In this document: positions 7,685 through 63,131 of the stretch, piece by piece
Layout of the letters: every line of letters starts with the position of its first letter
How positions within the stretch are numbered: position 1 is the first letter of the stretch
Assembly: GCA_040756055.1 (NCBI GenBank)
Contig: JBFLZR010000001.1
Coordinates: 63,849-127,848, forward strand
Length of the DNA stretch: 64,000 nucleotides
Origin: Candidatus Zixiibacteriota bacterium
Lineage (GTDB): Bacteria; Zixibacteria; MSB-5A5; GN15; FEB-12
Direction of reading: 5' to 3'
Notes under the pieces: generated by a model
Databases searched by the model: none
The model's input: only the letters and a program-made list of their open reading frames with translations
What the model was told of the DNA's origin: nothing
Program-made: the position numbers and the translations under genes

Positions 7685-7747
7685 AGATCCTCCAATTTAC
7701 TTTCAACGGGTCGAATGCCTCTTTTTTACAGCGGACGTATCCAATCA

Positions 7748-9850: not shown

Positions 9851-9865
9851 AATGACATGACACTA

Positions 9866-17927: not shown

Positions 17928-18011
<84 letters not shown>

Positions 18012-18013
<2 letters not shown>

Positions 18014-18048
18014 CTCTGAATGTCAATGACTTCAGAGGTTCTTTTTTT
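18012..18048 (+). terminator. Hairpin and T-run after the tRNA
   Basis: CCTCTGAA/TTCAGAGG stem followed by TTCTTTTTTT. A diverged homologue follows attR at 44798-44835. Confidence 0.6.
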
Positions 18049-18075
18049 GGCGGGAGTTCCTTCAGAAACCGGATT

Positions 18076-18094
18076 TTCTAACAGTTTTCTAACA
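18076..18094 (+). promoter_or_regulatory. Doubled TTCTAACA motif (candidate integrase arm-type site)
   Basis: TTCTAACAGTTTTCTAACA also occurs at 44608-44626 (135 bp left of attR) and 52106-52124. Confidence 0.4.
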
Positions 18095-33219: not shown

Positions 33220-33246
33220 AGTGATACTTAACCCCTCCTCTTAATA

Positions 33247-33453
33247 TTACTCAATTTCCTCCGCAGAGCGACGCCAACCGGCTTTTATCATATCCGCCAA
33301 CACAATATAGGATACGTAAGGTTTATTATGGCGGAGAGTCGCACAGTATTTGTAGTCCTGAACGAACTGGTCGAAGTCATCCCACGACGATTGCGGTAGT
33401 GTGTTTCGCGCTTCAATTTCCTTCATGGATTTCTTATCGTATTCGTCGGCCAT
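33247..33453 (-). CDS. Small protein (68 aa) embedded in the operon
   Basis: ATG at 33453 lies 1 nt after the methyltransferase stop, with GGAGG inside the MTase 3' end. MADEYDKKSMKEIEARN... The ORF-track start (33486) is probably too long. Confidence 0.55.
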   Translation of the reverse strand: MADEYDKKSMKEIEARNTLPQSSWDDFDQFVQDYKYCATLRHNKPYVSYIVLADMIKAGWRRSAEEIE

Positions 33454-33454
33454 A

Positions 33455-36400
33455 CTATTCCTCCAATGACCTGCTGATGAGGGCAATCTCCTCCGGACTT
33501 ATCGAATATATTTCGTAAATAATGCCGTCCACAGCTTGCGATAGTTCGTCCACCTCTGATTTGAGTGCGGGAACTTTAACAAAGGCAGGCTTACATGTGA
33601 TTTGCAGTATTTTATCGACGATCGACGCGATGTGTTTCTGTTGCTCTTTTGATGCTATTCTAAAGGGCAGTTTCTTGACCTTGCCGATCTTAATCTGAGG
33701 GAACACTCGACCAGACTCTTGAACGAGTTGATTGTATTTATATCTAACATAACTCGAATTGAATACCGCCAATGCATATTTAAGGTCAACCTCTCCTTTG
33801 TAAGCAGGTTTTATCCATGCGCACTGAATTGTATTACGAAACCATCTGCCTTTGGTATCAATAGTGGCTCTTAAATACGATGCCGTTTGCCGCCACAGAA
33901 GTTTATTATTCTCGGCAAAAGCTTCGCGAGAGAAACTCACCGACTCATCCGGCTTCAGAACTGCCTTATAATCAAGGTTAAAACACTCATTCGATTGGTC
34001 GGAAATCCAATATCTGTCTATAAGTTTCCCATACCAAGTATCAACCGCATTAGCGAAACGTCCGTTGCTGGATTTATCAAAAATCCTATCATACAAATCG
34101 TTGCCACCCTTGTTCTTTAACCCAATGCCTGATCTATGATATTGAATTCCTCCATCTTTAATCTCAAAAATATCCTCAAAATACTTCTCGTCTGTCTTGA
34201 GAACAACAGACGGATATAGGCTGTTATCTTTGCTGGTAATCGCATCCGGAAGCGGGATAGTGGAAAACGACAAGTTGCTAAGCGCAGACACTTCCGTAAC
34301 CCTGTATTTTAGATCTGCAAAATAATACTGCCCTGTCTCTGATGGCGTCCTACCTGCAATTGTGACACAGACAGGAACAACTACTTCCGGAAATACTCCC
34401 ATGCCCAAATTGAGTATCTTCAGAATGCCATGCGATAGTAAGAAATTTCTTAGGTCGCGATGTCGAGGCTGGCTTAGATAGGTGTTAGGAGTTATGTAAA
34501 CTAGGTGACCGTTTTGTCTCAAAATCTTGCTCAGACCTAGAGCGAAGAAGAGTTTGAAAATGTCTGCATAATGAGTTATGACACCCGGGTACCGGCTTCG
34601 ATAAGTGCCAACAAGGCTGTCAATATCCGCACCGTAAGGTGGATTCGCCATAACAACGTCAAATCCACCGCGCTCGCGAAATATCTCGGCATAGTTGAGC
34701 CTCCATAGAAAGAAAGGGCTGCTATTGGTTCGCTGAAACCTCTGGACTTCATCAAGCTTATCGCCCTTACCCTCTTGCCTTAATGTTGCCTCTATCAATT
34801 CCCATGTTAACGTTTCAATTTCTTTGTGCAAACGATCCTTTGCGCTCTTATTATGGGTATCAAAAAAACAGCTATGAAGCTCTAATAGCTTGCCAGCCTT
34901 AGATTGTGCTTCTGTCTGACCAAAAATATCAAACCGATCCTGATCATTGATCTCTGGCTGGTCTAATGCCTTGATTTGCTTATCAATCTTCTTGAGGTTC
35001 TTTTCTATCTCTGACTTCTTTGTCCTCGACAGCCTGTTATTACTATGAAGGTCAAAGTACTCTTGCTGAAATGCGGTCTGTTGATCTCTAAGTCTCTTCA
35101 GAAGCTGTTCCTTTTCCTCATGCTTCTCAAAAAACCGTTCATCAATAAGCTTAATTCCCTCATATTCTTCAAGTAGGCTGTTTCCCTGCATTATTTTGTA
35201 ATCCAAGTTAGGTAGGGGCTTAATGTGCTTGTAGTCTTCCTCGTCAACAATGAGCGAAAGCCACAGTCGAAGCTTTGCTATTTCTACGGCGCCCAAATCA
35301 ATGTCAACGCCATAGAGTGAGCCTTGAATTGCGTCTCGCTTGAAGTCATAGATATTTGGCTCTTCGCCCGGTTTATTCAAACGGGCCAAGACCGACCTCG
35401 TCTTGACGATCTCATTCATCATTCCCACCAAGAAAGCTCCGGATCCAACGGCTGGATCGCAGACCTTGATATCGGCGAGCTTATCATCGATTAGCTGATT
35501 ATACGCACGGATGGACTTAGGAAGTTTATACTTATATCGGCTAGTTTCTTCTCCTTGCTCCGATACGAGGGTATCGTTTTCGAGTGCTGCCTCGCCGTGC
35601 TTTATCAGTATCTCGATGTCCTCTCTCTTGACCCGCTCGTTCAGCTCTGTGGCGAGATGATTTATGAGGCTTTCCTGGCACATGTAGTGGACTATTTCGC
35701 GCGGAGTGTAATATGTGCCTTTTGACTTGCGGTCTTTGACCTCGAGCAGATTTTCAAAGACCTTACCAAGCATCTCCGGGTCAACAGCCACTTCTTTTTC
35801 GAGTGGTTCGTCTTCCTTTACCGTAAAGTTGTAGCGGTCGAATACATCCAAAATACCTGTACCGATGTCTCCGTGCTTGGTCTTCTTCTTATTGGAAAAA
35901 AGCTCTTCCGGCAACAGAATGTCAGTATGGACCCAATCGTAATTGTTTAGGGGATCAAACAATCCACCGTTCAGGAATGGAATCTTGCATTTGAAGGGAC
36001 TGTAATAATCACCATTCGCATTCCGGTCAACAGCCAGCACTTCATAAAACAATGGTTCGAGAATGTCATTGAAGAAATTATCATATTGGGACATTCTACC
36101 TTCAAATAGTAGCCTCAGGAAATTCTTGGGGCCGGTTCCCCAGGCTTCGTTGCGGGCGACTCCAAACCAACCTTTCTTCTGAAGGAAATACAGGAATACT
36201 ATCTGACCCAGGAGCTTCTTGGCGAAGTCAACAGTATCAACACCTTTCTCCTCAAAGTCTTGCTTGATAGTCTTATCCGTCTTGGCAAGTTTGTCCAGAG
36301 CTTCTTTGATCTCATGAAATAGCTGCCGGTATTGCTCAAAGAATTCTTTGGTAACCTTTTCAATGTTGAAGGCTTCCTGAATATCCGCAAAGGTAGGATT

Positions 36401-36940
36401 GCTGTCTGTCTCTTCGAGTGTAGGCAGTAATTTGCTTTGAGCTGTGTGGCTACCTTCGTGTTCACCTACAAGGAAAGAGTACCGTCTGGCCGGGGTAAAC
36501 TCCTCCACTACTTTCGGTGTCCCTTTCTTTGTCGTATCGAACTTGTATTCCATTTTGACAAAGGAGAAACGCCAGTCGCGCTCGTCAGGCGAAACGAAAG
36601 CTACAAGGGCACCGTCTTTCAGCTCATTGCCGCGGCTGCCCTTTAAGTACTTAGCCACAAAGTTTCTCTGCTTTGATCGTGCTCGCTCAAGTGAAGGGGC
36701 CTTGAGAAGGCTGACTATAAGAACGTCGAGTTTTTTGCCGTCAGAGTCTTCGTACTTCCCTATTCGCTCAAGGGACTTGACGGAGTCACGATAGTCTTTG
36801 AAGATATACTCGCCCCGGTAAATGAATGGAGCATCCTCAAGCCTATTCAGCAGATTCTTTATGAATAGCTTAAATTGGCCCTTATCAAAGGGCTTCTCTA
36901 AAGTGTCTCGTATGAGTTTTTTGGCTGCTTCGCGTTGCAT
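33455..36940 (-). CDS. Eco57I/PglX-like gamma-class N6-adenine DNA methyltransferase (1161 aa) with C-terminal specificity region
   Basis: GTYYTP, motif I VCDPAVGSGAFLVG preceding motif IV VMANPPYG. Long N- and C-terminal extensions. Possible PD-(D/E)xK-like string PDERDWRFSFVKMEYK near the N-terminus (weak). Confidence 0.85.
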   Translation of the reverse strand: MQREAAKKLIRDTLEKPFDKGQFKLFIKNLLNRLEDAPFIYRGEYIFKDYRDSVKSLERIGKYEDSDGKKLDVLIVSLLKAPSLERARSKQRNFVAKYLKGSRGNELKDGALVAFVSPDERDWRFSFVKMEYKFDTTKKGTPKVVEEFTPARRYSFLVGEHEGSHTAQSKLLPTLEETDSNPTFADIQEAFNIEKVTKEFFEQYRQLFHEIKEALDKLAKTDKTIKQDFEEKGVDTVDFAKKLLGQIVFLYFLQKKGWFGVARNEAWGTGPKNFLRLLFEGRMSQYDNFFNDILEPLFYEVLAVDRNANGDYYSPFKCKIPFLNGGLFDPLNNYDWVHTDILLPEELFSNKKKTKHGDIGTGILDVFDRYNFTVKEDEPLEKEVAVDPEMLGKVFENLLEVKDRKSKGTYYTPREIVHYMCQESLINHLATELNERVKREDIEILIKHGEAALENDTLVSEQGEETSRYKYKLPKSIRAYNQLIDDKLADIKVCDPAVGSGAFLVGMMNEIVKTRSVLARLNKPGEEPNIYDFKRDAIQGSLYGVDIDLGAVEIAKLRLWLSLIVDEEDYKHIKPLPNLDYKIMQGNSLLEEYEGIKLIDERFFEKHEEKEQLLKRLRDQQTAFQQEYFDLHSNNRLSRTKKSEIEKNLKKIDKQIKALDQPEINDQDRFDIFGQTEAQSKAGKLLELHSCFFDTHNKSAKDRLHKEIETLTWELIEATLRQEGKGDKLDEVQRFQRTNSSPFFLWRLNYAEIFRERGGFDVVMANPPYGADIDSLVGTYRSRYPGVITHYADIFKLFFALGLSKILRQNGHLVYITPNTYLSQPRHRDLRNFLLSHGILKILNLGMGVFPEVVVPVCVTIAGRTPSETGQYYFADLKYRVTEVSALSNLSFSTIPLPDAITSKDNSLYPSVVLKTDEKYFEDIFEIKDGGIQYHRSGIGLKNKGGNDLYDRIFDKSSNGRFANAVDTWYGKLIDRYWISDQSNECFNLDYKAVLKPDESVSFSREAFAENNKLLWRQTASYLRATIDTKGRWFRNTIQCAWIKPAYKGEVDLKYALAVFNSSYVRYKYNQLVQESGRVFPQIKIGKVKKLPFRIASKEQQKHIASIVDKILQITCKPAFVKVPALKSEVDELSQAVDGIIYEIYSISPEEIALISRSLEE

Positions 36941-36941
36941 A

Positions 36942-39900
36942 TCATTCCCCTACAAAATATTCGGACAATATCACTTCTCGTGGGCCGCCCACTTTAGCCC
37001 CGGTCTCCGCAAGATGGCTTCCCAGCAGTTCTGCGGGAATGTTCTTCTGGAGCACGCCAAGTATCTTCAAGGGATTGATTTCCTTCTTTATCACAGAAGT
37101 CATATCTTTGAGAACCGTCTTGGCCGTCTGTTTTGGTAAACCGCCGTCCTGAAGTTCCTTAATCACTTTCCGGAGATATTCTTCCTGCTCGTCTGTAAAC
37201 TGCCGGTAGTCCTTGACGGCTCGCAAAATTTTCAGTAGCTGCGTTGCTGTATCTCTTCCGCCTTTTAGTTTTGTATCCGGCATGTCCTCGGTTGTGGCGA
37301 ACACAAACGCTTCCTTGTTCTTGCTAAGCAGGTCGTAAAATTTGGGGCCGAGCTTTTCCCGCTTGACGGTTGCTTTAGTTTCTAATTGCGCAGCGGCTGA
37401 CAAGAAATCCAATTCCTCTGCCTCGTCGGTGCCAGCGAGATAAAACTTTTGAAGCTTCCCCTTACGGAAGTAGGTAAGAAGTCGGTCTCCTTTGCCCGGC
37501 TCTTTTCTGGCAGTTCGGGCCTTCTTGGGCAATCGCTTGATTTGCTCAAACAAGTCAGGATCGTTATCCCGAATGTTGCGAATGAGCTGGAGATACTTAA
37601 GACCACTGTCCTCTTCGCCGTCTTCGCCGGTAATCGTTTTCTTGGATATCAGTCGGTCAAAAAGTTCGTGATGCTCAACAGCCTCACCCTCGGTCAGCAG
37701 TCTCGCGTCCGCTCCGAGAAGTGTAATGAAAGCCTGAATCTTGGCTTCGGCGGCTTCCTTCAGCTTTATCTGGTCATTCGACTGTTTAGTCGGGAAGAAA
37801 TTGAAAGTATAGATTTTGTCGAAGGTAGTATCAACCCGGTTTATGCGCCCGACTCGCTGCATCAGACGGGTGGGGTTCCAGGGGATATCATAATTGATGA
37901 CGACATTAGCGCGGTGCAGATTTACACCCTCCGAAAGCACTTCGGTAGCCACCAAAATACGATAGTCGTCTTTGGGATAACGGGCTCGGGCGTCAAAATT
38001 TTCAATTACCTTTTCCCTGACGCTTGCCCCTGATGAACCGGTATAATCGAGAATACCATCGCCGAAGTGCTGTTTTAGATTCTTAGTCAGGTAGTCAGCG
38101 GTCTCCTTAGACTCGGTAAAGACAATCAGTTTATTTTCCTTGAGGACTTTCCTTGATTTGAGAATATCCACAAACTTGAGAAGCTTTGGATCACGATTGA
38201 CACCTTGCCAAAGAGTGTTAATTTTCTTTAGAAGTTCAAGATCATGTTCCAAGTCTTTGCGGAATTCTGTCTTGAATCCCTTGGCCTCGAATTTCTCCGC
38301 TTTGCCCTGTTCAATCAGCTCCACTACCCGGTCTTCATCTCCATTTGCCAACAATTCAAAAATCTTCGCAGAATACTCCTTGCTGACATATACCGCGCCT
38401 TTATCGAACTGCTCGATGAAAAGCTCATAGGAAGCAATGAAGCGGTTGATAGAATTGCGGAAGGCGTAAAAGCTGCTCTCCAGACGCTTGACCAAGAGGA
38501 TTTTCATAAATCGGCCCATGTTCCGCTGGGCTAACTGTTCCGGCTGTTCAACCTCTCCGGTGTAATACAAGAGCGGCGTGTATCTGGAATATTTGAACTT
38601 CTGTGTAATGAGCTTGATAGTTTCGCTAAAGACCTTATCTTCTTCGTCGTTCAACTCGTAGAAAGCGGGTTCGGGGTCGATAACTTCCGGAAACTTCAGG
38701 CCCTGCTTTTTGAGGTCATCGGGGAAGTGTTTCTCAATCTCCTGCCTTGTGCGCCGAACCATCAAGTATTTGAGGACTTTGTCCCGTATTTCTCTGGCGT
38801 TTTCCTTGGTCACCTGAATGAATTTGGCTTGGTCTTTCTGGCGGTCAAGGCCTTTTAGACGATTCTCCAGCTTGCCAAAGAAGCGTTCCAAATCCGGCGT
38901 TCCAGGAATAGTGCTCTTTCGGGACTTCTGGAATAACTTGATCTGACTCAATATGTCCTTTGGCGAATTATTGAACGGAGTCGCCGTCACTAATATCACT
39001 CTCTTACCACGGCAAATCTGAGCCAGCTTCTCATAAGTGATATTGGTCTCCGTGCGGAACCGGTGCGCTTCATCAATGAATATATTCTTATACTTCTCTG
39101 TGCCCCGCTTAATAAGCGTTTCAAGCTTTCCAAGCGATTCAAAGTCCGCGCTCACTCTGAAGTCAGAGAATACGTTTGGCCACGAACCCGGGTTGTCCCG
39201 ATCTAGAAGCACTGGCGGAGCAAGGACTAGTGTGCGGCCTTCAATTTGACTAGCCAGCATGGCTGCCATGTAGGTCTTGCCAAGACCGACCACGTCCGAG
39301 ATAAAAGCACCGCCGTATTCGTCAATAATCTTTTTGGCATTTAGTACCGCTTGTTCTTGATATTCAAGACGTTTGAATTCAATCGGGACGTACTTAAAAA
39401 AGACCTCCTCCTGAATGCTGATTTCGTCTTTGAAATACTCGTAGAGAAATTTGAGGTATAGCTGGTATGGGGTAATGGTATCATTTAGCCAAGTCCGAGT
39501 CTGAATAGTATCAATGTATTTGTCTTTGACTTCGACGGCATCAGCCCAAAGCTTGTCGAACTGCTTCTTGGCAAAATCATAATCGTTGCCATCTTTCAGC
39601 TCGACATTGAACTCAAGGTTATCAATCAGACCGGCCTGCGTGAAGTTGCTCGAACCGGTGATAACCCTGCCCACATCGCGGTCGCCCTCAACAAAAGTCA
39701 TCAGATAGACTTTGGCATGGATGTTCTCGGAAGGGTATGCCCTGATTTCAAGTTTGCCGCTTCGCAGCCACTCCAGAAACTTGTGAACCCCTTCTTCAAT
39801 TTCCTTCTTATCCGCACAGTCGGCCAGCTCGGCGGTGACCGCCTCGCCAAAACATTCCTTAGCCTCGGCATGGGAAAAAGGCAAGCTTTCCTGTTTAGCT

Positions 39901-40118
39901 TGGTTAATTAGGTCGATGGTGGACTTACCGGTACCGATGCCAATCAGGATTCTGATTCTCTCTGTTTTTTCCAGAGACCGGTAGATGGCATAGAAACCGC
40001 TGGTAAAGAAATAGCCAACCAGCACGTCGAAAAAGCGGGTATCCTTAATCAGAACCCGGAAGCGATCAATTAGACGCCGGTCTCTTTCGTTGGTTATAAA
40101 AGTTAAATCTGTCTTCAT
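36942..40118 (-). CDS. PLD-family nuclease domain fused to an SNF2-family helicase
   Basis: 1058 aa. PLD HxK NIHAKVYL plus GSSNFT. SNF2 motifs DVVGLGKT, IFIDEAHRFR, LVTATPFNN, VATEVLSEGVNL, QRVGRINR. Confidence 0.9.
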   Translation of the reverse strand: MKTDLTFITNERDRRLIDRFRVLIKDTRFFDVLVGYFFTSGFYAIYRSLEKTERIRILIGIGTGKSTIDLINQAKQESLPFSHAEAKECFGEAVTAELADCADKKEIEEGVHKFLEWLRSGKLEIRAYPSENIHAKVYLMTFVEGDRDVGRVITGSSNFTQAGLIDNLEFNVELKDGNDYDFAKKQFDKLWADAVEVKDKYIDTIQTRTWLNDTITPYQLYLKFLYEYFKDEISIQEEVFFKYVPIEFKRLEYQEQAVLNAKKIIDEYGGAFISDVVGLGKTYMAAMLASQIEGRTLVLAPPVLLDRDNPGSWPNVFSDFRVSADFESLGKLETLIKRGTEKYKNIFIDEAHRFRTETNITYEKLAQICRGKRVILVTATPFNNSPKDILSQIKLFQKSRKSTIPGTPDLERFFGKLENRLKGLDRQKDQAKFIQVTKENAREIRDKVLKYLMVRRTRQEIEKHFPDDLKKQGLKFPEVIDPEPAFYELNDEEDKVFSETIKLITQKFKYSRYTPLLYYTGEVEQPEQLAQRNMGRFMKILLVKRLESSFYAFRNSINRFIASYELFIEQFDKGAVYVSKEYSAKIFELLANGDEDRVVELIEQGKAEKFEAKGFKTEFRKDLEHDLELLKKINTLWQGVNRDPKLLKFVDILKSRKVLKENKLIVFTESKETADYLTKNLKQHFGDGILDYTGSSGASVREKVIENFDARARYPKDDYRILVATEVLSEGVNLHRANVVINYDIPWNPTRLMQRVGRINRVDTTFDKIYTFNFFPTKQSNDQIKLKEAAEAKIQAFITLLGADARLLTEGEAVEHHELFDRLISKKTITGEDGEEDSGLKYLQLIRNIRDNDPDLFEQIKRLPKKARTARKEPGKGDRLLTYFRKGKLQKFYLAGTDEAEELDFLSAAAQLETKATVKREKLGPKFYDLLSKNKEAFVFATTEDMPDTKLKGGRDTATQLLKILRAVKDYRQFTDEQEEYLRKVIKELQDGGLPKQTAKTVLKDMTSVIKKEINPLKILGVLQKNIPAELLGSHLAETGAKVGGPREVILSEYFVGE

Positions 40119-40568: not shown

Positions 40569-40760
40569 TCACCACCGCCTTCGCGCTTTTCTCGTACGGG
40601 TCTTAAGCCAACGTTCTATGTCCTCTTTTCGGAACCTGACCAAGTTGCCGAGCTTCAGGTGTGGTATCTTCTCTTCGTGAGTCCAGCCATATATGGTGGA
40701 TTTCTTGACATTTAGGTAGTCTGCTACTTCCTGTGGAGTTAAGAGCCTCTCTTTCGGCAT
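40569..40760 (-). CDS. Second excisionase-family HTH protein
   Basis: 63 aa. LLTPQEVADYLNVKKSTIYGWTHEEKIPHLKLGNLVRFRKEDIERWL. Confidence 0.8.
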   Translation of the reverse strand: MPKERLLTPQEVADYLNVKKSTIYGWTHEEKIPHLKLGNLVRFRKEDIERWLKTRTRKARRRW

Positions 40761-41282: not shown

Positions 41283-43553
41283 ATGAAGACTGTCAGAACC
41301 TTGCTTTATAATGACTGCGAGTTTGAATTCTGGGAGCTTGAACTCCTCCACACACCGATATTGCAGCGAATGTACAATCTAAAGCAGCTAGGCTTCGCCG
41401 ATCGAATTTATCCTGATGCAGTGCATTCCCGTTTCAATCACATACTCGGTGTCACCAACAGGGCCGACAAGATCGTTTCGGGAGTCATCAGATCCCTTAG
41501 TAGAGAACAAGGGAATCTCCCCCCCGGACGAATGGACTTCGAGTACAACCGTAAGAGCATCCCTATTGCCAAACTGCAAGCTTATGTGGACAAGCGTCGG
41601 CCCGTCGTACGATTAATCGCGCTTCTTCACGATATCGGTCACATTCCTTTCGGCCATACGTTGGAAGATGAAATGCATGTCTTTTCCGTCAAGCACGACA
41701 ATCCTAAACGTCAGTGTCAGTTCTTTAACATCTTAGTTAGAGAGTTTGTATACGCGCTAATTCTTCGCCACGACCCGAACATAGACCCTGCTCTTCTGAC
41801 AATAGTCTGTAAAGACGAACCATCTCAATTAGAGAGCGATTACCTCATTTCTAGGCTCAAGACTGCGCTTGACAGAATTAAACGTTGCTACCAACCGGAT
41901 CTTATCCATGAGATTCATACATTTCTTGTCAACCTAGAGAGGGCGATGGTGGCGCTGTTCTATCTCGATGATGTTCACAAGGAACGGAACGGCGATGATA
42001 AGGGAGCAGAACAAGAGCGAAACGACGCCCGACAAAAGGCGATAGGGGAGCTCTTTATTTCAGTGGTGCTGTCCCAGTGCGAAATTACTGCCGGACCTGA
42101 CCAACCTGCGTTCAATCTCGATCTCGATGCGTTTTCGCTCGACATAATCGGCAATACAATCTGCGCTGATTTGCTCGACTATGCCAAACGAGATTCTCGA
42201 ATGTCTGGACTTCACTACGATTATGATGACAGAATTTTCAGGTACTTTAGCCTTGTAAGTTACAAAGCCAGGGGCGCAGACCACCCCATGATTCGACTCT
42301 GTCTACAGGTGTTCACAAACAAGCTGCGACTCGATGTTGTCTCAGAAATTGTGACAATTCTTCGTGCTCGATACCTTCTGTCCGAAAGAGTCATCTTTCA
42401 TCCAACAAAATGCGCTGCTGGCGCAATGCTCGGAACCGCAGTTTCTATGATGGGCATTCGAGAAGCCGAGTTGAATTTCTTCCGAATAGGCGATGCAGTC
42501 TTCATGGCGAAGCTCGAACAGCATGTGGTGAGATGCTTACAAATCACTAAAGAGGTCAGGGACTATACTGCCGTCGACGCTGCGGCGAACAAAGCCGAGG
42601 TCACAAAATTTCTTACTTGCTGCAAGAATCCGGATCAATATCAGCCGTTTGAAAGTGTATTGGAGACGCTATCAACGACCCTAAAGAGCTTACCAGATCG
42701 CTCCGGAATCACAATGGCTCTGCTAAAAATCTGCACTGAAGAGCTGGCGGCTATTGAAGTGAACGCCAACGAGAATCTGTTCGGTAGCCCCGAGACCGCA
42801 AAGGACTTAGCCGAAAAGATCGTTTTGCGATTGACCGAGGCCTCGCGCCTGATGTGGCAGATTCAAGCTCGACAGTACTACGATCTGGTGTTTCGAGTCT
42901 CTAGAATAGATAAGAAGACAAACGCCTTGGTTGTGAAGGAACTTGCGGATAAGTTCAAGAATCCCGCATTTCGGTTTAAATTCGAGCGTCGAGTGGAACA
43001 CGATGCAGACTTGAAGTATGGATCTCTTGTCATTCACTGTCCAAAGTCAGATACATCACTGAAGGAAGCCAATGTTTTGGTGTTCGGTTCCGATCCCAAG
43101 AGCGTGATCGAATTCAGCGCTATAAAAGAGGAACACGAATTACACAGCCTTAGCCCTCACATACAAGAGGCCATTGATCTGGCCAGTGCCTACAAGAGGA
43201 TATGGAACATGTATTTCTTCGTGCAAGAGGCTCAGATGTACAAGTGGCCGTTAATTGAAGAAAAGATTCGATTTGCCCTCACTGAGATAATCGGTTCAGA
43301 TGTATCCAATTGCGACGATTTGCATCGTCAACTCAAGTCCACGTACGGAGACGTTGCATTCCACCTAATTCGGGTCGTCGAATATATGCAGTCTTCCGAG
43401 AAGGTTCCCAAGGTTCCGCTAACGCCAGAATTTGTTGAATTTGTGGAAGGGGTAACCCCCCACGGCAGGAAAGTCGATATTTCCCCCGAAACGGTGGTCA
43501 AGCAGTGGTTAGCAATCTACCTGCGACCAGAAGAGAAAAGTGACAAGAAGTAG
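41283..43553 (+). CDS. SAMHD1/dGTPase-like HD-domain protein with a long C-terminal extension
   Basis: 756 aa. GGGAGG RBS. LLHTPILQRMYNLKQLG...HSRFNHILGV...LLHDIGHIPFGHTLEDE...ADLLDYAKRDSRMSGL matches the dNTP triphosphohydrolase motif order. Confidence 0.8.
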   Translation: MKTVRTLLYNDCEFEFWELELLHTPILQRMYNLKQLGFADRIYPDAVHSRFNHILGVTNRADKIVSGVIRSLSREQGNLPPGRMDFEYNRKSIPIAKLQAYVDKRRPVVRLIALLHDIGHIPFGHTLEDEMHVFSVKHDNPKRQCQFFNILVREFVYALILRHDPNIDPALLTIVCKDEPSQLESDYLISRLKTALDRIKRCYQPDLIHEIHTFLVNLERAMVALFYLDDVHKERNGDDKGAEQERNDARQKAIGELFISVVLSQCEITAGPDQPAFNLDLDAFSLDIIGNTICADLLDYAKRDSRMSGLHYDYDDRIFRYFSLVSYKARGADHPMIRLCLQVFTNKLRLDVVSEIVTILRARYLLSERVIFHPTKCAAGAMLGTAVSMMGIREAELNFFRIGDAVFMAKLEQHVVRCLQITKEVRDYTAVDAAANKAEVTKFLTCCKNPDQYQPFESVLETLSTTLKSLPDRSGITMALLKICTEELAAIEVNANENLFGSPETAKDLAEKIVLRLTEASRLMWQIQARQYYDLVFRVSRIDKKTNALVVKELADKFKNPAFRFKFERRVEHDADLKYGSLVIHCPKSDTSLKEANVLVFGSDPKSVIEFSAIKEEHELHSLSPHIQEAIDLASAYKRIWNMYFFVQEAQMYKWPLIEEKIRFALTEIIGSDVSNCDDLHRQLKSTYGDVAFHLIRVVEYMQSSEKVPKVPLTPEFVEFVEGVTPHGRKVDISPETVVKQWLAIYLRPEEKSDKK

Positions 43554-43561
43554 TAGCTAAC

Positions 43562-44524
43562 ATGACTGTATCTCGTTCTGGTAGGCGGTATGCTGGCTGG
43601 GCCTACGGCAGGTTCATGGAAGAGCTGATTAGAAAGCCGCTGACCATCAAGTTATCTCCGGTAGTGCAAGGCTTGTTATACAATAGGTCTGAATCTTCCT
43701 TAATAGAAATTGTGGCAGAATTTGCAGATAATTTGCGAGAGAGTCATGGAGAGCTGTTACAGAAGAGGAACTTCGCGACAGTTTCTAAATTGGCAACGGA
43801 GCTTGGGTATCAGGTTGTTGGTTCCCCGCGTCAGAATGTAGACTTCTACGTCGAGCGACCTTTCTTCGGTTCTTCGTTCAGACTCCGAGGCAAGAGAGTC
43901 ACTTACCTTTCCAATCCAATTACGGAGGAAGAAGCACGAGCCACGATTGCTCATGACATTATGCACAGTCTTTTCGAAACGACGGATGGTCAGCGACCGG
44001 GAAATCTGCCTTCGGATGAAATTGAGGAAAAGCTCTGTGACTACGGTGCTTGCAGGCTACTGATTTCCAAAGCTGAGCTGGCCACCGTAATTGCGCATGG
44101 GGCCGGAGGGAACGTAGCTAGTAACATCGCAAGGGTGGCAGGATATTTCAATATTCCCCGGCGATATGCGGCAATGCGCCTTTTTGACCCCCTTTGCCCA
44201 CTCTCAAACAGTGGACTTACGGCGATTGTCGAATGGCGAAGAAAGAGTGGCCCTACTGAGGAACCTCATACAAGTGTCGTTCCAACATGGTCAGTGTGTC
44301 GCAAAGCGTTTATTCCATGGCTCGGTAGCAAGCGAAGTTGTCACGCAAGACGCGAGAGCATCGTTGCCAATGCCATGTCGGAGGATCCATACTTTCGTTT
44401 TAGTGCAGTGGAGGATACCAATATTGGCTCGCTTAAGGGAAACTATTTAGTCTCTGTTTGCGTCCTTGGTCCGAAAGAATCCCCTTATCGGAGGGTAGTT
44501 TCTGTATTTGAAGACATTGGTTGA
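43562..44524 (+). CDS. ImmA/IrrE (M78)-like domain protein with HDxxH in place of HExxH
   Basis: 320 aa. ARATIAHDIMHSLF...EEKLCDYGACRLLISKAEL...IARVAGYFNIPRRYAAMRL parallels the M78 motif order. Starts 8 nt after the HD gene. Confidence 0.6.
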   Translation: MTVSRSGRRYAGWAYGRFMEELIRKPLTIKLSPVVQGLLYNRSESSLIEIVAEFADNLRESHGELLQKRNFATVSKLATELGYQVVGSPRQNVDFYVERPFFGSSFRLRGKRVTYLSNPITEEEARATIAHDIMHSLFETTDGQRPGNLPSDEIEEKLCDYGACRLLISKAELATVIAHGAGGNVASNIARVAGYFNIPRRYAAMRLFDPLCPLSNSGLTAIVEWRRKSGPTEEPHTSVVPTWSVCRKAFIPWLGSKRSCHARRESIVANAMSEDPYFRFSAVEDTNIGSLKGNYLVSVCVLGPKESPYRRVVSVFEDIG

Positions 44525-44603
44525 ACCACCCAAACCGGGGAAACGCACGAGTGGTCGATCGCGAATTGAATCGGCGTTAGCATTGCCCTCATTTGACATA
44601 CAC

Positions 44604-44718
44604 CCCTTTCTAACAGTTTTCTAACAAAACGAGCAAAAACACCAGATAATAAGGGAAAGCACCAGACACTGGGTTTCCCGTAAGTAATTGCTATTATTAC
44701 AGGTTAGTGTCTGGTGCT
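44604..44718 (+). repeat. About 115-bp repeat with the TTCTAACA doublet and a long hairpin (copy 1, just inside attR)
   Basis: Aligns with 52102-52216 at high identity. Hairpin arms CACCAGACACT (44660-44670) and AGTGTCTGGTG (44706-44716). Confidence 0.85.
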
Positions 44719-44742
44719 TTCTGGTGTCTGGACAGCTTAATC

Positions 44743-44798
44743 GGCTCATAACCCGAAGGTCAGGGGTTCAAATCCCCTCCCCGCTACCAAGTTTAAGC
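44743..44798 (+). repeat. attR core (displaced 3' fragment of tRNA-fMet)
   Basis: Character-by-character identical to 17958-18013. No tRNA 5' half lies upstream. Confidence 0.95.
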
Positions 44799-44982
44799 TC
44801 CTGAAGTTCAATCACTTCGGGAGTTTCTTTTTTGGGCGGGCGCCTTCAGGATAACGACTGTCTACCAGAAATTTTCTCAATTGACGCAAGCGACTTGCGT
44901 ACATAATGTTTAAGACGCTTTCGAACCATATTACCGGGACGAGTGTTCATAATAGCAGGGCTGTATATTCAAGGGATTCGAA

Positions 44983-45942
44983 GTGAGGTCATTGAACAGA
45001 CAGGCTTCTCAAGCTGCTCCTCCTGTCAGCACGAACGGGAATTTTCGGGCGCTCGGCGCCTTGCCGCGACGTTCTTGGCCCGTCAGAAGAATAATTCTTT
45101 CTTCATTATATCTGACGGCGCTGATTGTTTTGGTGGTTCTGATGATCGATGGATGGTCATACTACACGACTCCTTATACAGACCGACCACATCATCCCGA
45201 CTATAGATCGCTACGACCTGCCGGAAGCACCGGCGTGGTTTTAGGGATCGTCGGCGCAACAATGATGCTTCTAATGCTTGTTTATTCACTGCAGAAACGG
45301 TTGCGGCTGTTCGGTCGTCGTACGCCGTTGCGGCCGTTTCTCGATGGCCACATCTTTTTGGGGGTGATCGGGCCTTTGATGATCATAATGCATACTTCAT
45401 TTAAGGTTCAGGGGCTTGTCGCGATTGCGTTTTGGGCAATGATTGCAGTGGCTCTCAGCGGATATTTCGGTCGCTATCTCTACCAACAGATCCCGCGAAC
45501 CATCGATGACAAAGAGCTTTCCCTGACTGAGATTGAGCTATCATTGGATAACGCGTTGAATGAGATCAGAGTGCGCTCGGGTCTGGACGAAGAAGTTCTT
45601 GAGGATGTGCTGGCGAAGATTGAAAGGGTATACTTTGCGGAATCCACGAGAGTCTATAAGCTGCTTCCGATTCTGATAGTGAGGGATATCATCCGGCCCT
45701 GGTCGAAGCACAGGCTAAGGCACACCCTATCAGTTTCCGGTCACATTCCGCCGCAGGAAGTAAAAACACTGACCGAGCTTGGCGGCAAGAGAGCTTTGCT
45801 GAAACGACGGCTTCACATCCTTGGGCGCGTGCAGCGTATGTTCCATTGGTGGCACATAATCCATAAACCTCTGGCGATAATCATGTATGTAATAATGATA
45901 GTCCACATAACCGTAGCTGTTTGGACCGGATATGCATGGTAA
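44983..45942 (+). CDS. Polytopic membrane protein with His residues in predicted helices (possible b-heme or quinol-interacting subunit)
   Basis: 319 aa (start uncertain). Helices contain DGHIFLG, IIMHTSF, HWWHIIHKP and MIVHITV. Overlaps the next gene by 11 nt. Confidence 0.6.
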   Translation: MRSLNRQASQAAPPVSTNGNFRALGALPRRSWPVRRIILSSLYLTALIVLVVLMIDGWSYYTTPYTDRPHHPDYRSLRPAGSTGVVLGIVGATMMLLMLVYSLQKRLRLFGRRTPLRPFLDGHIFLGVIGPLMIIMHTSFKVQGLVAIAFWAMIAVALSGYFGRYLYQQIPRTIDDKELSLTEIELSLDNALNEIRVRSGLDEEVLEDVLAKIERVYFAESTRVYKLLPILIVRDIIRPWSKHRLRHTLSVSGHIPPQEVKTLTELGGKRALLKRRLHILGRVQRMFHWWHIIHKPLAIIMYVIMIVHITVAVWTGYAW

Positions 45943-47656
45943 AAAAATTCGGTCTTCCATCACGTCACCGCAACGTGTTCTTACTCCGACGGCGGTATTG
46001 GCTGCGGTTTTGATTTTTTTTACTACCGTAGTCGACAGTGTGCACGGGCAACTCTCCCCCGGAGAGCTGCACAGCTCCCATTCTCTCCTTGAGGGTGTTG
46101 AGAACTGTGGCAGGTGTCACTCAGCGGATAGAAATGAGTTGCCCGGCTTATGCCTGGAATGTCACAAAGCTATTGAGAAGCAGCAGGCAGCCGGCCGGGG
46201 ACTGCACTCTTCGCCTGATTACCGTGACTGCGCGCTTTGCCATGTGGAGCACCAGGGTCGAGACTACGAGCTCATTTATTTCAGCGGCGGACAGGAAGCG
46301 TTCGATCATTTACAGACCGGGTATGCGCTGGAGGGTGCTCATGCCGGGCTCGAGTGTCGAAAGTGTCATCGTCAGCAGTTCTTGTCCGACCCTCGGGCAC
46401 TTTCGGAGCAAGGGTCTTCGCCGGAAAGGACTTTTCTGGGATTGGAAAGAAAATGTGTGTCATGTCACTCTGATCAACACCGTGGACAACTTGGCACGGA
46501 TTGTGCCGGATGTCATGACTTTCAGCATTGGAAGCCCGCGGTCAGTTTCAGTCACGACACCGCACGATTTCCCCTTACCGGCCGGCATGCGGTTGTTCCC
46601 TGCGCCAAATGCCATCATCAGGTAACTGCCGCGGATGAATCGGAGTCAGCGCCGTCCGTTAATTATCGCCCCGTTGCTCACGGGACCTGCACCGATTGTC
46701 ATCGCGACCCACACGAACGGCGGCTTGGCGATGACTGCGAACGGTGTCACAACACCGGGGGCTGGCGAGAGGTACGGAGCGCCGAATTTGACCACGACCG
46801 GACGCGATATCCGCTCCGCGGCAGGCACGCCTCAGTGGAATGCGGGAAATGCCACGGTAAAGAATCCCGAAACGGGGCGCTACTGTTTTCGCGATGCCTG
46901 GACTGTCACGCCGACTTCCACGACGGCGCCTTCGCAGACAGAGAAGGAGGAACCGAGTGCGGGCAGTGCCACGTGGTCGAGGGATTCAGCCCGGCCAGGT
47001 TCACACAATCCGACCACGACCTGACCAGGTATCCCCTTCGCGGTGCTCACAAAGCAATCGCCTGTAGCCAATGCCACCGGGCGGATAGCGCCTCCGCGAA
47101 AATCGACCGCTTCGATTTCGAATCTGTGCGCTGCGCCGGTTGTCATCGCAACCCCCACGGCAGCCAGCTGGATCGCTGGATAACCGCGGAGGGTTGTGAG
47201 GCATGTCACAGTGTCGAGCAGTGGAGCACGGTCAGTTTCGACCATAATCAGACCGAATTCGCTCTTGCAGGCAAACACGGCGCCGTTGCCTGTATCCGGT
47301 GCCACAAGGACGAATCCGCGGCGGCGGGTGAACTTGTTTTTAAGCCGATCGATACGCACTGCGAAACCTGTCACACAGATATCCACGCCGGGCAGTTCGC
47401 CGATATTGGCTCGGACAGCGGCTCCAGATGCGTACGCTGCCACACGACCGACTCCTGGCGGCCTGACAATTTCGACCACAACCGCGATTCACGTTTTGTC
47501 CTGGAAGGCGCACACACCCGAGTGCCGTGCGCCGCCTGCCACAGGACTGAGACAGTCTCGGACGATGGCACGGCGCTCACCCGGTATCGCCCGCTCGATA
47601 TGACGTGCGCGTCCTGTCACGGAACCATTAAAGAGATGGGAAGGGTAAAGTTATGA
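45932..47656 (+). CDS. Multiheme cytochrome c, 20 CxxCH motifs
   Basis: 574 aa with an N-terminal hydrophobic anchor. I counted 20 CxxCH motifs in the ORF-track translation. Confidence 0.9.
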   Translation: MHGKKIRSSITSPQRVLTPTAVLAAVLIFFTTVVDSVHGQLSPGELHSSHSLLEGVENCGRCHSADRNELPGLCLECHKAIEKQQAAGRGLHSSPDYRDCALCHVEHQGRDYELIYFSGGQEAFDHLQTGYALEGAHAGLECRKCHRQQFLSDPRALSEQGSSPERTFLGLERKCVSCHSDQHRGQLGTDCAGCHDFQHWKPAVSFSHDTARFPLTGRHAVVPCAKCHHQVTAADESESAPSVNYRPVAHGTCTDCHRDPHERRLGDDCERCHNTGGWREVRSAEFDHDRTRYPLRGRHASVECGKCHGKESRNGALLFSRCLDCHADFHDGAFADREGGTECGQCHVVEGFSPARFTQSDHDLTRYPLRGAHKAIACSQCHRADSASAKIDRFDFESVRCAGCHRNPHGSQLDRWITAEGCEACHSVEQWSTVSFDHNQTEFALAGKHGAVACIRCHKDESAAAGELVFKPIDTHCETCHTDIHAGQFADIGSDSGSRCVRCHTTDSWRPDNFDHNRDSRFVLEGAHTRVPCAACHRTETVSDDGTALTRYRPLDMTCASCHGTIKEMGRVKL

Positions 47657-48900
47657 GAGCAGTCATAGCGGCAGTTGGTGTCGCCATTGTCGTTGCCGCA
47701 GGTTTGCTTCATGGAGCATCGACCGATCCGCACGGCAAACTGGCATGGGATTGTGTTTCTTGCCACACAACGGAATCGTGGCATCGGTTGGCTGAAGACA
47801 TGAAATTCTCGCATGCCGAGACCGGTTTTCGCCTTCTTGGGGCGCACAAAAAGGTGGCCTGTCGCTCGTGCCACAAGGACCTTCGCTTCAGCAATATCGG
47901 CACCGCCTGTGCCGACTGCCACGTGGATCATCACATGGGTCAGTTGGGGACGGATTGTCAAAGCTGCCACATAGTGCGCGACTGGGGCCCCCAAACAAAT
48001 CTTCTGTCACAGCACGCCGAGCGAGGTTTCCCGCTCACGGGTGTTCATGCGATCGCCGATTGCGACGCCTGTCACCGCAACGAAGACCGACAGGAATTTA
48101 CCGATACGCCGACTGAGTGCATAAGTTGTCATCGCAACGACCTTGAGGCGGCGGTGTCTCCCGACCACAACGCCCTGGCTTTCAACACCGACTGTCAGCG
48201 CTGTCACAGTGCCGCCTTTGGAAGCTGGACCGTTACCACCTATGCGCACCCCGCAGTGTTTCCGCTGACCGGCGCTCATGCAAACCTGGAGTGCACTGCC
48301 TGCCATCAGCAGACTTTTGTCGGAACCCCCACCGACTGCATTGGCTGTCATGATGCTGACTTTCGGGCCACCGCTGATCCGGATCACGAGGCAGCCGGTT
48401 TCTCCACCGATTGCGTCTTGTGCCACACCACTACCGCATGGACGCCGGCTTCATTCGATCACGCCAAGACGGCCTTTCCACTCGACGGGCAGCATGCCGT
48501 CGTTGACTGTGTGGCCTGTCACCAGACCGGCTATGCCGGCACCCCGACAGACTGTTATGCCTGCCATCAAAACGACTATGAGGCTACCTCCGATCCAAGC
48601 CATATCGCAGCGCATTTCCCGACCAACTGTGAATCGTGCCACTCCGCATCGGGATGGACTCCGGCAGACTGGGACCATGATGCCCAGTATTTCCCAATAT
48701 ATTCCGGTACCCACAGGGAAAAATGGCAGGATTGCAGCGAGTGCCACACCATACCGACCGATTTTTCTTCCTTCGACTGCACCAACTGCCACGAGCACAA
48801 CCAGACAGACATGGATGCCAAGCACACGGAAGTCACAAATTACCAATATCTGAGCAGCGCCTGCTACAGTTGCCACCCTACAGGAAGCAGTGATGACTAG
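47653..48900 (+). CDS. Multiheme cytochrome c, 16 CxxCH motifs
   Basis: 415 aa with a signal-like N-terminus. 16 CxxCH counted. ATGA overlap with the upstream gene. Confidence 0.9.
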   Translation: MRAVIAAVGVAIVVAAGLLHGASTDPHGKLAWDCVSCHTTESWHRLAEDMKFSHAETGFRLLGAHKKVACRSCHKDLRFSNIGTACADCHVDHHMGQLGTDCQSCHIVRDWGPQTNLLSQHAERGFPLTGVHAIADCDACHRNEDRQEFTDTPTECISCHRNDLEAAVSPDHNALAFNTDCQRCHSAAFGSWTVTTYAHPAVFPLTGAHANLECTACHQQTFVGTPTDCIGCHDADFRATADPDHEAAGFSTDCVLCHTTTAWTPASFDHAKTAFPLDGQHAVVDCVACHQTGYAGTPTDCYACHQNDYEATSDPSHIAAHFPTNCESCHSASGWTPADWDHDAQYFPIYSGTHREKWQDCSECHTIPTDFSSFDCTNCHEHNQTDMDAKHTEVTNYQYLSSACYSCHPTGSSDD

Positions 48901-50509
48901 GCTGACCGTACTTATCTTCATGCTTGCGGTCGTGTCTTTCGCTCCGGCAAGCCCGAGCTCAGATGGGGGGTTTGTCGTTTCTTATGTCTCGATTGACCAC
49001 GTTTATATCGATGGCGGTCGAGCCCGTGGTATCGAAGTCGGTGACACTGTTACGAAAACCGTCAAAGGAGAGATCGTCGCAAGGATGGAAGTGGAATATG
49101 TCTCGATGCATTCGGCGTCGTGTCGAGTCCTCGACGGTTCTCAGGCGGTCGGCACGGGTGATATAGTTACAATCGAGCGCAAGATGCATTCGCGCGAAAC
49201 AGTACCCCCAGCGTCTATCGTGACGAACACTCCTCCCTCGGCACCCATTGCCGTACCAGCCACACCGGCGAGTGGCAAGACCTCCGTTCCGGTGCGATAT
49301 TTTGGAAACGTGTCCTTAGCGATTTACCGATGGAATGACAACAGCGATGCCGATCTCGGTTTCACACAGACAAGCGCAAGGTTCAATTTTCGTGTCGACA
49401 ATATCTGGAAAAAGCATGCGACTCTCACTATACGTACACGGGGAAGGTATGATGTTCGCAACAGCGCCTACAACACGGGCAGTCCCGAGCAGGAGTGGCG
49501 CAACCGGCTATGGGAGTTGTCTTACAAGTACCATCCACCCGATGCCCGGCTTGGCTTCACGATCGGAAGGTTCATCCCGCAACATCTCGGAAACATCGGC
49601 TTTATCGACGGTGGTCTACTTAGCGTTCGCTTGGCCGACAATTTGCAGGTAGCCATGATGGCCGGACGCCGGCCCGAATGGGCGTACGGAGAGATTGACC
49701 ATGCTCTTGAAAGGTACGGGAGCTATGTTTTCTTTCGCCACCACAGTACAGCGGGGGCGACGTTCGAGCAAACTTTCGGTGCAGTGGGCGAGTTCCACGG
49801 CAGCATTCCCAGCCGCACGTTTTTGGCCTGGCGCGGCGTTGTCCGCCGCGGGACTTCCTTAGGCCTCAGCCATTCGGTCGAACTGGATATCAACAGCGGA
49901 TGGAGAAGAGAACGGGTCGGTCACCGTACGAGTTTATCTAACTTGTACATCCAAACGTGGGTCCACCCTCGTCGCGATCTGCGGTTTTCGGTTCAATACG
50001 ACAACCGGCAGAAGTATTGGTACTATGAGCTCATCTCCGAGGCAGACAGTCTATTCGATGATCGTATTCGCCGGGGAATCCGCGGTAGTGTTGACGTGGC
50101 GCTTTTAGCCCAGGTATGGCTGCACGCCTCACTTGGTTACCGAAAAACATCAAATGAAACTAAGGCGAGTATCAGCTACTCCGCCAGTCTTCGGAAATCC
50201 GGGTTTTTCGGGTACAGCGGCAGTTTATTGATATCGGCATTCCAATTCGACGGGGTCAACGAGAACGGCTTCGGATACAACGCCAGGCTTCAGCTGCCCC
50301 CCGTGGCGCTGGTCGATCCCTATATCGGAACTGGTGGATACTCATATTCAGCCGCGGGCAGCGATGGGTACCGTCGAAGCACTTCACTGGAATTAGGAGC
50401 GACTCTCGATCTGTCGCGGAAGTACTTTATCAGTCATCGTTCCGAATGGAGTTGGGGCGACGATATTGAGGGGCTGCGCACAACTCTTGAAATCGGTTAC
50501 AGGTATTAA
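48890..50509 (+). CDS. Putative outer-membrane beta-barrel protein
   Basis: 539 aa. Signal peptide MMTRLTVLIFMLAVVSFAPA. Alternating-polarity strands rich in Y/R/G. C-terminal ...LEIGYRY aromatic terminus is typical of OMPs. Confidence 0.6.
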   Translation: MMTRLTVLIFMLAVVSFAPASPSSDGGFVVSYVSIDHVYIDGGRARGIEVGDTVTKTVKGEIVARMEVEYVSMHSASCRVLDGSQAVGTGDIVTIERKMHSRETVPPASIVTNTPPSAPIAVPATPASGKTSVPVRYFGNVSLAIYRWNDNSDADLGFTQTSARFNFRVDNIWKKHATLTIRTRGRYDVRNSAYNTGSPEQEWRNRLWELSYKYHPPDARLGFTIGRFIPQHLGNIGFIDGGLLSVRLADNLQVAMMAGRRPEWAYGEIDHALERYGSYVFFRHHSTAGATFEQTFGAVGEFHGSIPSRTFLAWRGVVRRGTSLGLSHSVELDINSGWRRERVGHRTSLSNLYIQTWVHPRRDLRFSVQYDNRQKYWYYELISEADSLFDDRIRRGIRGSVDVALLAQVWLHASLGYRKTSNETKASISYSASLRKSGFFGYSGSLLISAFQFDGVNENGFGYNARLQLPPVALVDPYIGTGGYSYSAAGSDGYRRSTSLELGATLDLSRKYFISHRSEWSWGDDIEGLRTTLEIGYRY

Positions 50510-51879: not shown

Positions 51880-52101
51880 GTCAGACCGCACATTAAACGC
51901 CATCCCCAACAGATTTCACTTTATTGGTGAATCGTGAAACCGTGACTGGAGTTCGGTAAACTGTCCCATTTGCTTGTGTGTGCGTCCACGGGGTCCGCAA
52001 TATGCAATTCACATTCCTCGGCCAGAATGCTATACTTCATAGTAACGTGATTTGAATTACTTCACCTGATAGTGTATGTATCAGTACACTTTCCGACAGA
52101 C

Positions 52102-52216
52102 CTCTTTCTAACAGTTTTCTAACAGAATTAGCCAAAACAACAGAAAATAAGGAAAAACACCAGACACTGTATTTCCCGTAAGTAATTGCTATTACTACGG
52201 GTTAGTGTCTGGTGCT
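52102..52216 (+). repeat. About 115-bp repeat (copy 2), no tRNA fragment beside it
   Basis: CTTTCTAACAGTTTTCTAACAGAA...CACCAGACACTGTATTTCCCGTAAGTAATTGCTATTACTACGGGTTAGTGTCTGGTGCT. Confidence 0.85.
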
Positions 52217-52233
52217 GTCTTATGTCGCGGCGG

Positions 52234-63051: not shown

Positions 63052-63131
63052 ATACTATTCCTTTAGTTCGATCATACAAGGCGGGAGCACAGTCGCCCCC
63101 GCCATGGAATTGCCAATAGATTCCGTGGATA

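Follow-up and report, generated by a model that had tools for sequence, protein, structure and literature searches.

A conserved gene pair encoding a predicted SAMHD1-fold HD phosphohydrolase and an IrrE/CapP-like peptidase: a candidate defence module

Why would a gene for an HD-domain phosphohydrolase be followed, a few nucleotides downstream, by a gene for an M78-like metallopeptidase? The question was raised by two plus-strand genes in a 64,000-nt stretch of contig JBFLZR010000001.1, from a Zixibacteria metagenome-assembled genome (MAG); this whole stretch is referred to here as the window. The first gene (41283–43553, 756 aa) encodes a long-form HD phosphohydrolase with a predicted SAMHD1 fold, the presumed effector, and the second (43562–44524, 320 aa) an IrrE/CapP-type M78 peptidase-like partner. 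The two open reading frames (ORFs) were separated by 8 nt and were the final real genes upstream of attR, one end of an integrative island; ORFs and att repeats agreed in this with an original prediction made from the sequence alone. That prediction had also proposed a regulated HD-effector pair, which was upheld in part: adjacency, unrelated flanks and correlated divergence (r = 0.94) spoke for it, but the HDxxH metal site of the second protein proved idiosyncratic to this copy, and the supposed extra C-terminal domain of the first had been misread. The HD protein and its partner form one conserved, horizontally mobile module that is co-inherited, and we propose that it may act in defence.

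The pairing was constant across genomes. In ten annotated contexts, looked up by exact protein, a partner of 267–388 aa was encoded directly downstream of the HD gene and on the same strand in every case (10/10), and in several of them the stop and start codons overlapped. A wider survey took in 70 non-redundant HD loci whose downstream sequence was long enough. Within the close HD family the partner was scored automatically at 24 of 26 loci and the remaining two were resolved by eye, one (L020) with an interrupted HD gene followed by the partner and the other (L025) with a diverged HELAH ORF. The co-occurrence that the original prediction had left for checking was therefore seen at effectively 26 of 26 close-family loci, in unrelated contexts. 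At L020, in an Acidobacteriaceae MAG (5968–10350), the N-terminal part of the HD gene stops at 7551 and the C-terminal part restarts at 8473, with an intact partner downstream; either an insertion or faulty assembly could account for the interruption. Among more distant relatives, a partner-like gene accompanied 17 of 22 long forms versus 2 of 22 short forms (Fisher p = 9e-6), and both partner-bearing short forms were split ORFs. Pairwise identities of HD proteins and partners were strongly correlated (r = 0.936 over 253 locus pairs from 23 distinct loci; 0 of 2000 permutations in a Mantel test reached this value). Mean identity across loci was 31% for the partner versus 41% for the HD enzyme, showing that the partner diverges faster.

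This rapid divergence also affected the recovery of partner homologues. A word-indexed search returned only the query itself with a single sequence and five sequences with a 7-sequence profile, and was unsuited to the task because the partner family diverges too fast. Homologues were collected instead with locus-based hidden Markov model searches and an exhaustive profile search. Out of 1.84 billion representatives, the profile search retrieved 109 clusters at E <= 1e-10, of which 56 were at E <= 1e-30. The hosts included Zixibacteria, KSB1, Myxococcota, Acidobacteriota, Verrucomicrobiota, Gemmatimonadota, Planctomycetota, several Proteobacteria and a Firmicute, and weak matches occurred in archaeal MAGs. 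Many members came from one lineage (Terriglobales/Acidobacteriota), and the overall spread covered at least nine phyla. In viral contigs a single distant match was found, with a partner-like ORF downstream, and the pair is not typically phage-borne. The pair was almost absent from sequenced plasmids too, which held only distant HD proteins with other neighbours. On plasmids of Rhizobium and Mycobacterium (L092, 4457–7346; L093, 4355–6806), long-form HD proteins had a hypothetical gene of 134–144 aa directly upstream in place of the M78 partner, and may represent other partner-regulated HD systems.

A more compact version of the pairing was observed at L063 (5848–8586), L051, L047 and L060, where an HD protein of approximately 520–585 aa stood with a HEIGH/HEIAH peptidase of approximately 270–300 aa. 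The C-terminal domain of these peptidases was similar to that of the long-form partner. At L040, L046 and L054 the M78 gene was on the opposite strand; L054 and L064 were from archaeal MAGs. The compact versions reach into many phyla and possibly archaea. In a Verrucomicrobiota MAG (L030, 5974–9006), the HD ORF stayed open in frame beyond 1,011 aa, up to the contig end, and its last residues weakly resembled the partner N-terminus (VKFQPLL; E 0.02–0.06). A fusion of HD protein and peptidase was considered for this locus and was not accepted, as the contig ends before any HExxH.

The HD ORF is a real gene rather than a chance reading frame, since more than 100 full-length homologues (700–820 aa) were found at E < 1e-90. 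Its affiliation with known families was less direct. The Pfam HD model matched the region of LLHDIGHIPFGH with 26.1 bits (cut-off 22), and the PADLOC dGTPase model gave 28 bits with only 104 residues aligned. The NCBIfam dGTPase models scored 12–24 bits against cut-offs of 150–500, including 24 bits against 152 for TIGR01353 and 18 bits against 400 for the anti-phage dGTPase model NF041026. By these scores the HD protein lies outside the curated dGTPase and anti-phage dGTPase families (TIGR01353, NF041026 and PADLOC dGTPase). The grouping with partner-less housekeeping dGTPases that would have spoken against a dedicated pair was likewise not seen, as the curated models failed and members of the long-form family nearly always came with the partner.

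Conservation was assessed in an alignment of 26 family members, which was conserved along its whole length. The four motifs that had been read in the order typical of deoxynucleoside triphosphate (dNTP) triphosphohydrolases, QRMYNLKQLG, HSRFNHILGV, LLHDIGHIPFGH and DLLDYAKRD, were all present. The N-terminal block at 41364–41453 (+) comprises QRMYNLKQLG (aa 28–37) and HSRFNHILGV (aa 48–57), which contains the first metal-site histidine; Q28, R29, Q35, L36, G37, H48, R50, H53 and G56 were invariant, and the block (aa 28–57) aligned with the N-terminal block of SAMHD1/9MR6. The segment LLHDIGHIPFGH (aa 114–125; 41622–41657, +) carries the HD dyad and two more histidines, with H116, D117, H120 and H125 invariant. 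The last metal-binding aspartate and several substrate-site residues are in DLLDYAKRD (aa 296–304; 42168–42194, +), where D296, D299, Y300, R303 and D304 were invariant and aligned with 'DVDKWDYFARD' of SAMHD1. All metal-site residues (H53, H116, D117 and D296) were therefore among the invariant positions.

An AlphaFold (AF2) model built from the 26-sequence alignment reached a mean predicted local distance difference test (pLDDT) score of 84 and a predicted template modelling (pTM) score of 0.86. In a Foldseek search of this model against the PDB, the top 50 matches were SAMHD1 orthologues or SAMHD1-containing complexes (E ~1e-8), with target-normalised template modelling (TM) scores of 0.5–0.64 and approximately 700 columns aligned onto the ~450-aa SAMHD1 core. 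The closest relatives by structure and by sequence were all SAMHD1/EF1143-type dNTP triphosphohydrolases. The model thus supports a SAMHD1-type fold with an intact metal and substrate site. The approximately 350 residues that had been regarded as extra C-terminal sequence correspond to the normal C-terminal lobe together with insertions and a tail, and not to an appended domain. This follows from the ~700-column SAMHD1 alignment and from L069, a partner-less Ectothiorhodospira protein of 432 aa that retained the C-lobe motifs CPxxxxxKEA and YxxxWxxYxF. Family-specific additions were helical insertions at approximately aa 140–290 and 400–530 and a tail at approximately aa 660–756. The second insertion (42480–42870, +; model helices 404–528) lies at the junction of HD core and C-terminal lobe; it varied between clades, was gapped in the alignment and was far shorter in L069. 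The tail (43263–43553, +) was absent from L069, which continued for approximately 20 aa past YxxxWxxYxF, compared with approximately 100 aa in the long forms of the window and of L063. This tail may have a regulatory role.

For the partner gene, NCBI annotates a shorter product (302 aa, start 43616). The start at 43562 was preferred because the N-terminal residues it adds align with homologues. The window sequence by itself scored 17 bits with Pfam M78, below the cut-off of 22, and the assignment to M78 therefore holds solely at the family level. Six of seven partner family members matched the Pfam model (best E 2e-6), and a family profile searched against the PDB retrieved Deinococcus IrrE (1e-8), an IrrE orthologue (3e-8) and CapP (8e-4). 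The structural model, built from five sequences, was of moderate quality (pLDDT 71); over its full length, Foldseek matched it to 6CZ6/6CYJ/6D2S (E 4e-5) and to Thauera CapP (7T5T; E 7.5e-4, TM 0.47–0.52). An M78 fold as expected of an ImmA/IrrE-type protein was hence supported by both the family profile and Foldseek, and single-protein structure prediction recovered the two expected folds (SAMHD1-type, pLDDT 84; M78, pLDDT 71). No match to the partner was obtained in scans with PADLOC 2.0 and NCBIfam.

The invariant residues of the partner alignment were two histidines, an arginine five residues before the first of them, a pair of glutamates 20 residues on and, within the C-terminal half, further Trp, Arg, Glu and Gly positions. 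In the window copy the zinc-site helix reads HDIMH (aa 131–135, within AHDIMHS at aa 130–136; 43952–43966, +). The HDIMH site is indeed present as the original prediction stated, but it is not a trait of the family: H131 and H135 were invariant, position 132 was glutamate in 51 of 51 homologues (HExxH), and only the window copy had aspartate (codon GAC), a single third-position change. Every other invariant residue was kept. In CapP the corresponding E98Q mutation abolishes activity, which makes full peptidase activity of the window copy doubtful; the copy may be attenuated, or may work mainly by binding. The glutamate pair (aa 155–156; 44024–44029, +) aligned with the conserved glutamate region of IrrE/CapP and probably provides the third zinc ligand. 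The C-terminal domain (approximately aa 215–320; 44204–44521, +; model strands 219–318) was predicted to be beta-rich and GAF/PAS-like and is the presumed sensor. With Foldseek it gave weak matches to PAS, Cache and LOV sensors, and its invariant residues were W225, W243, E284, G289 and R310. The invariant residues R126, W225, W243 and R310 would be compatible with a nucleic-acid groove. From profile and model together, the partner appears to be an M78 peptidase of the IrrE/CapP type whose peptidase core is joined by a helical linker to a GAF-like sensor domain.

In contrast to the constant pairing, the flanking genes differed at every annotated locus, and many of these settings looked mobile or defence-like. 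On the window island, a type IIG restriction-methylase, an HKD+Snf2 helicase and a Ppl-like ATPase are encoded among the neighbours of the pair. An integrase adjoined the pair at L005, AAA_15/21 and PLD genes were nearby at L006, and L088 had a reverse transcriptase, a BilD/ThiF gene, another M78 gene and an rve integrase as neighbours. A CHAT protease was encoded near the pair at L089. Transposases were found near the pair at L004 and L087, and tRNA genes beside it at L004 and L006. At L001 an HTH_17 excisionase-type gene stood next to the pair, as in the window. At L007 and L087 the pair was a bare two-gene insertion among housekeeping genes. A conserved XRE or helix–turn–helix (HTH) repressor gene beside the pair was found neither in the ten annotated contexts nor in the window.

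Among the known systems close to the partner are CapP-CapH, a regulator that accompanies CBASS and other immune operons, and IrrE/PprI-DdrO of Deinococcus. They share with it the M78 zinc-peptidase core, the arginine five residues before HExxH and the downstream glutamate ligand, and apparently also the layout of peptidase, helical linker and GAF-like domain; the structural alignment with CapP extended over the full length. CapP and IrrE bind single-stranded DNA (ssDNA) in a groove between their domains and then cleave the adjacent HTH repressor. Activation of CapP by ssDNA has been described by authors who expect CapP-related sensors in new combinations (10.64898/2026.05.16.725639). Unlike CapP-CapH, IrrE-DdrO and ImmA-ImmR, the partner had no CapH/DdrO-type HTH repressor beside it in the ten annotated contexts. 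Its conserved neighbour is an enzyme, which suggests post-translational rather than transcriptional control. The partner also differs from CapP and IrrE in having no cysteine-switch loop, with no cysteine between H135 and E155, and the window copy differs further in its aspartate for the catalytic glutamate. The best full-length structural match (E 4e-5) was to a Mycobacterium tuberculosis regulator (6CYJ/6CZ6/6D2S) in which M78-like and GAF-like ligand-binding domains are likewise combined. These entries are deposited as a transcriptional regulator, presumably PrpR with its DNA-binding domain, whereas the partner had no significant HTH match and its family keeps HExxH.

The HD protein can be compared with the anti-phage dGTPase (Tal et al.) and SAMHD1, with which it shares the HD metal site, the SAMHD1-type fold and the expected nucleotide depletion. 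It is 250–300 aa longer than these enzymes by virtue of its insertions and tail. It also scored far below the curated models. While the defence dGTPases known so far are encoded by single genes, this enzyme comes obligately with a peptidase. Partner regulation of a dNTPase is known from Clover, in which the dNTPase CloA is combined with the nucleotidyltransferase CloB (PMC12265719). Both systems consist of two genes in which a partner enzyme regulates, or here would regulate, a dNTPase effector and balances defence against toxicity. CloB, however, is a nucleotidyltransferase of the Pol-beta type whose product is an inhibitory nucleotide, in contrast to a metallopeptidase with a sensor domain; no nucleotidyltransferase family match was found in the partner with Pfam, PADLOC or NCBIfam scans, and no CloB homology was found. 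Protease-licensed effector zymogens, supported by phylogenetic congruence, have been reported as well (PMC12642450). [quoted passage not shown]

Taken with these comparisons, the reading we prefer, at a probability of roughly 0.45, is that of a defence module: a nucleotide-depleting HD effector would be governed by a sensor peptidase that acts on the enzyme itself. The HD enzyme would be the effector against phages or mobile elements, acting through depletion of nucleotides, most likely dNTPs. The M78 partner would be the infection sensor, switched on by ssDNA or another ligand bound between its peptidase and GAF-like domains; this switch is proposed because of the analogy with CapP and IrrE. 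The peptidase would act on the HD enzyme directly and after translation, a step proposed because a repressor substrate is lacking. Most likely, cleavage of a family-specific insertion or of the C-terminal tail would release HD activity. These parts are the likely targets because they are much reduced or absent in the partner-less L069. In the window copy, the change from glutamate to aspartate may have left cleavage slow or lost.

Several observations weigh against this proposal. Every curated dGTPase model was missed by a wide margin. The partner model was of only moderate quality (pLDDT 71, five sequences) and its TM score with CapP was ~0.5, and the window copy has no catalytic glutamate. 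The contexts of L007 and L087 are housekeeping neighbourhoods, and most family members are from uncultured soil and sediment MAGs.

In a different arrangement, an antitoxin-like partner would bind or continuously trim a potentially toxic HD enzyme, and infection would inactivate or titrate the partner, thereby freeing the enzyme; activation would then not depend on proteolysis. We consider this possible, if unlikely. As Clover demonstrates, a partner can restrain a dNTPase, and the overlapping stop and start codons suggest joint production of the two proteins. The faster evolution of the partner (31% versus 41% mean identity) is often seen in components facing phage counter-measures, and a window copy that keeps all invariant residues but the catalytic glutamate fits a role that depends on binding. 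On the contrary, retention of HExxH in all 51 other homologues speaks for the importance of catalysis in this family, and signal-sensing activators are the proteins in which a GAF-like sensor domain would more typically be found.

The L007 and L087 contexts, with the pair among core metabolic genes, suit a housekeeping or stress function, with the pair as a non-immune regulator of the dNTP pool that responds to DNA damage. An IrrE-like ssDNA sensor would here cleave the dNTPase and thus raise dNTPs for repair, or lower them to pause replication. IrrE itself is a DNA-damage sensor and no defence protein, and many family members belong to the Terriglobales/Acidobacteriota lineage. Against this stand the rarity and patchiness of a family of about 56–109 clusters among 1.84 billion that is scattered over at least nine phyla, the different flanks at every locus, and the frequency of integrases, transposases, tRNA genes and known defence genes as neighbours. 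The window pair itself rides on an integrative island. We regard such a function as rather improbable.

An equally improbable reading concerns the chemistry and is compatible with the others: the HD protein would be a nuclease, or a hydrolase of nucleoside triphosphates or of signalling or modified nucleotides, with the peptidase still its regulator. The failure of all curated dGTPase models is in its favour, as are the large insertions. In our by-eye reading, the positions that we take to correspond to K312 of SAMHD1 (Leu297) and to its allosteric D137 and R145 (His23 and Tyr31) differ in the HD protein. Its nearest relatives, however, are all SAMHD1/EF1143-type dNTP triphosphohydrolases, and the metal site and several substrate-site residues were invariant. 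Very improbable, and rejected here, is an ImmA-like island switch in which the peptidase cuts an ImmR-like repressor encoded elsewhere and the HD gene is an unrelated passenger: ImmA/ImmR systems do control the induction of integrative and conjugative elements and prophages, and an HTH_17 excisionase-type gene adjoins the pair in the window and at L001, but the pair is conserved and co-diverges at loci without mobile-element genes, adjacency to the HD gene is kept across phyla, and no repressor gene is conserved nearby.

Should the proposed control of the HD effector by its sensor peptidase be correct, a SAMHD1-fold enzyme in prokaryotes would be under post-translational control of a dedicated sensor protease, and the role of IrrE/CapP-type peptidases would widen from cutting repressors to controlling an effector directly, a step foreseen, though not yet observed, by the CapP authors. 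Depletion of dNTPs is an immune strategy common to humans (SAMHD1) and bacteria. As to how bacterial dNTPases are controlled before infection, Clover is, to our knowledge, the only worked example, and the pair suggests a second solution, unlike Clover's, for keeping these enzymes off until infection. More tentatively, and with some doubt, the pair might be the first case of an IrrE/CapP-type metallopeptidase, activated by ssDNA or another ligand, that is wired directly to an enzyme effector instead of a transcriptional repressor and, through cleavage of an inhibitory insertion or tail, licenses a SAMHD1-like dNTPase. A literature search did not find the pairing of HD and M78 proteins described, though an earlier in-silico mention is possible. 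Together with the lack of a PADLOC match to the partner, this agrees with the original prediction, in which the pairing was not recognised. Screens based on E. coli or Bacillus would have missed the pair because the family occurs mostly in uncultured lineages of soil, sediment and groundwater.

The integrative island that carries the pair as cargo in the window measures approximately 26.8 kb between the att repeats, is low in GC content and is associated with tRNA-Met. The tRNA gene (17928–18004, +; ARAGORN) and attL (together 17928–18050, +; ARAGORN and repeat family D7) form the far end, where a tyrosine integrase gene (17983–19269) adjoins the tRNA-Met. At attR (44743–44835, +), the 3' part of the tRNA-Met and its flank are repeated with 89% identity to 17958–18050. 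The HTH_17 excisionase gene (40569–40760) was the only HTH gene near the pair in the window. Other island genes encode a relaxase, a coupling protein, an ArdC-type protein and a serine recombinase. A promoter scan upstream of the pair found a sole promoter-like site, which abuts the start codon and is uninformative, as was the terminator scan.

Three large minus-strand genes of the island (30229–40118) resemble a composite defence block. One encodes a Ppl/SMC-like ATPase of 996 aa and another a type IIG restriction-methylase, which is 1161 aa long and scored 844 bits with PADLOC; the remaining product is an HKD(PLD)+Snf2 helicase of 1058 aa (PADLOC C3a139). One base separates the restriction-methylase and helicase genes. 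On the same island, at 29201–29986 (–), an ArdC N-terminal domain occurs in fusion with an unrelated, second M78-like domain (Pfam, 20 bits). Such a fusion is the usual layout of anti-restriction ArdC proteins.

Between the partner gene and attR lies a 127-nt element (44602–44728), of which a second copy with 87% identity was found 7.5 kb downstream (52100–52226) with no tRNA fragment behind it. A long hairpin was predicted for the element (−45.7 kcal/mol, z = −4.55), and an Rfam scan of the spacer between partner and attR, including the element, gave no match. Its first 20 nt (TTTCTAACAGTTTTCTAACA) recur just inside attL (18075–18108). They might serve the integrase as arm sites, or represent a small element that is mobile or regulatory.

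Upstream of the island, the stretch at 8700–9850 was rich in repeats, with three tandem units of 30–31 nt at 8702–8822, units of 225–245 nt at 9236–9833 and a 37-nt palindromic motif in four copies. Just outside attR, a run of genes with the GC content of the host (45932–50509) included multihaem cytochrome c proteins of 574 and 415 aa. Near the end of the window, two neighbouring 263-aa ORFs (62260–63923, –) were paralogues, with a 262-nt stretch repeated at 74% identity.

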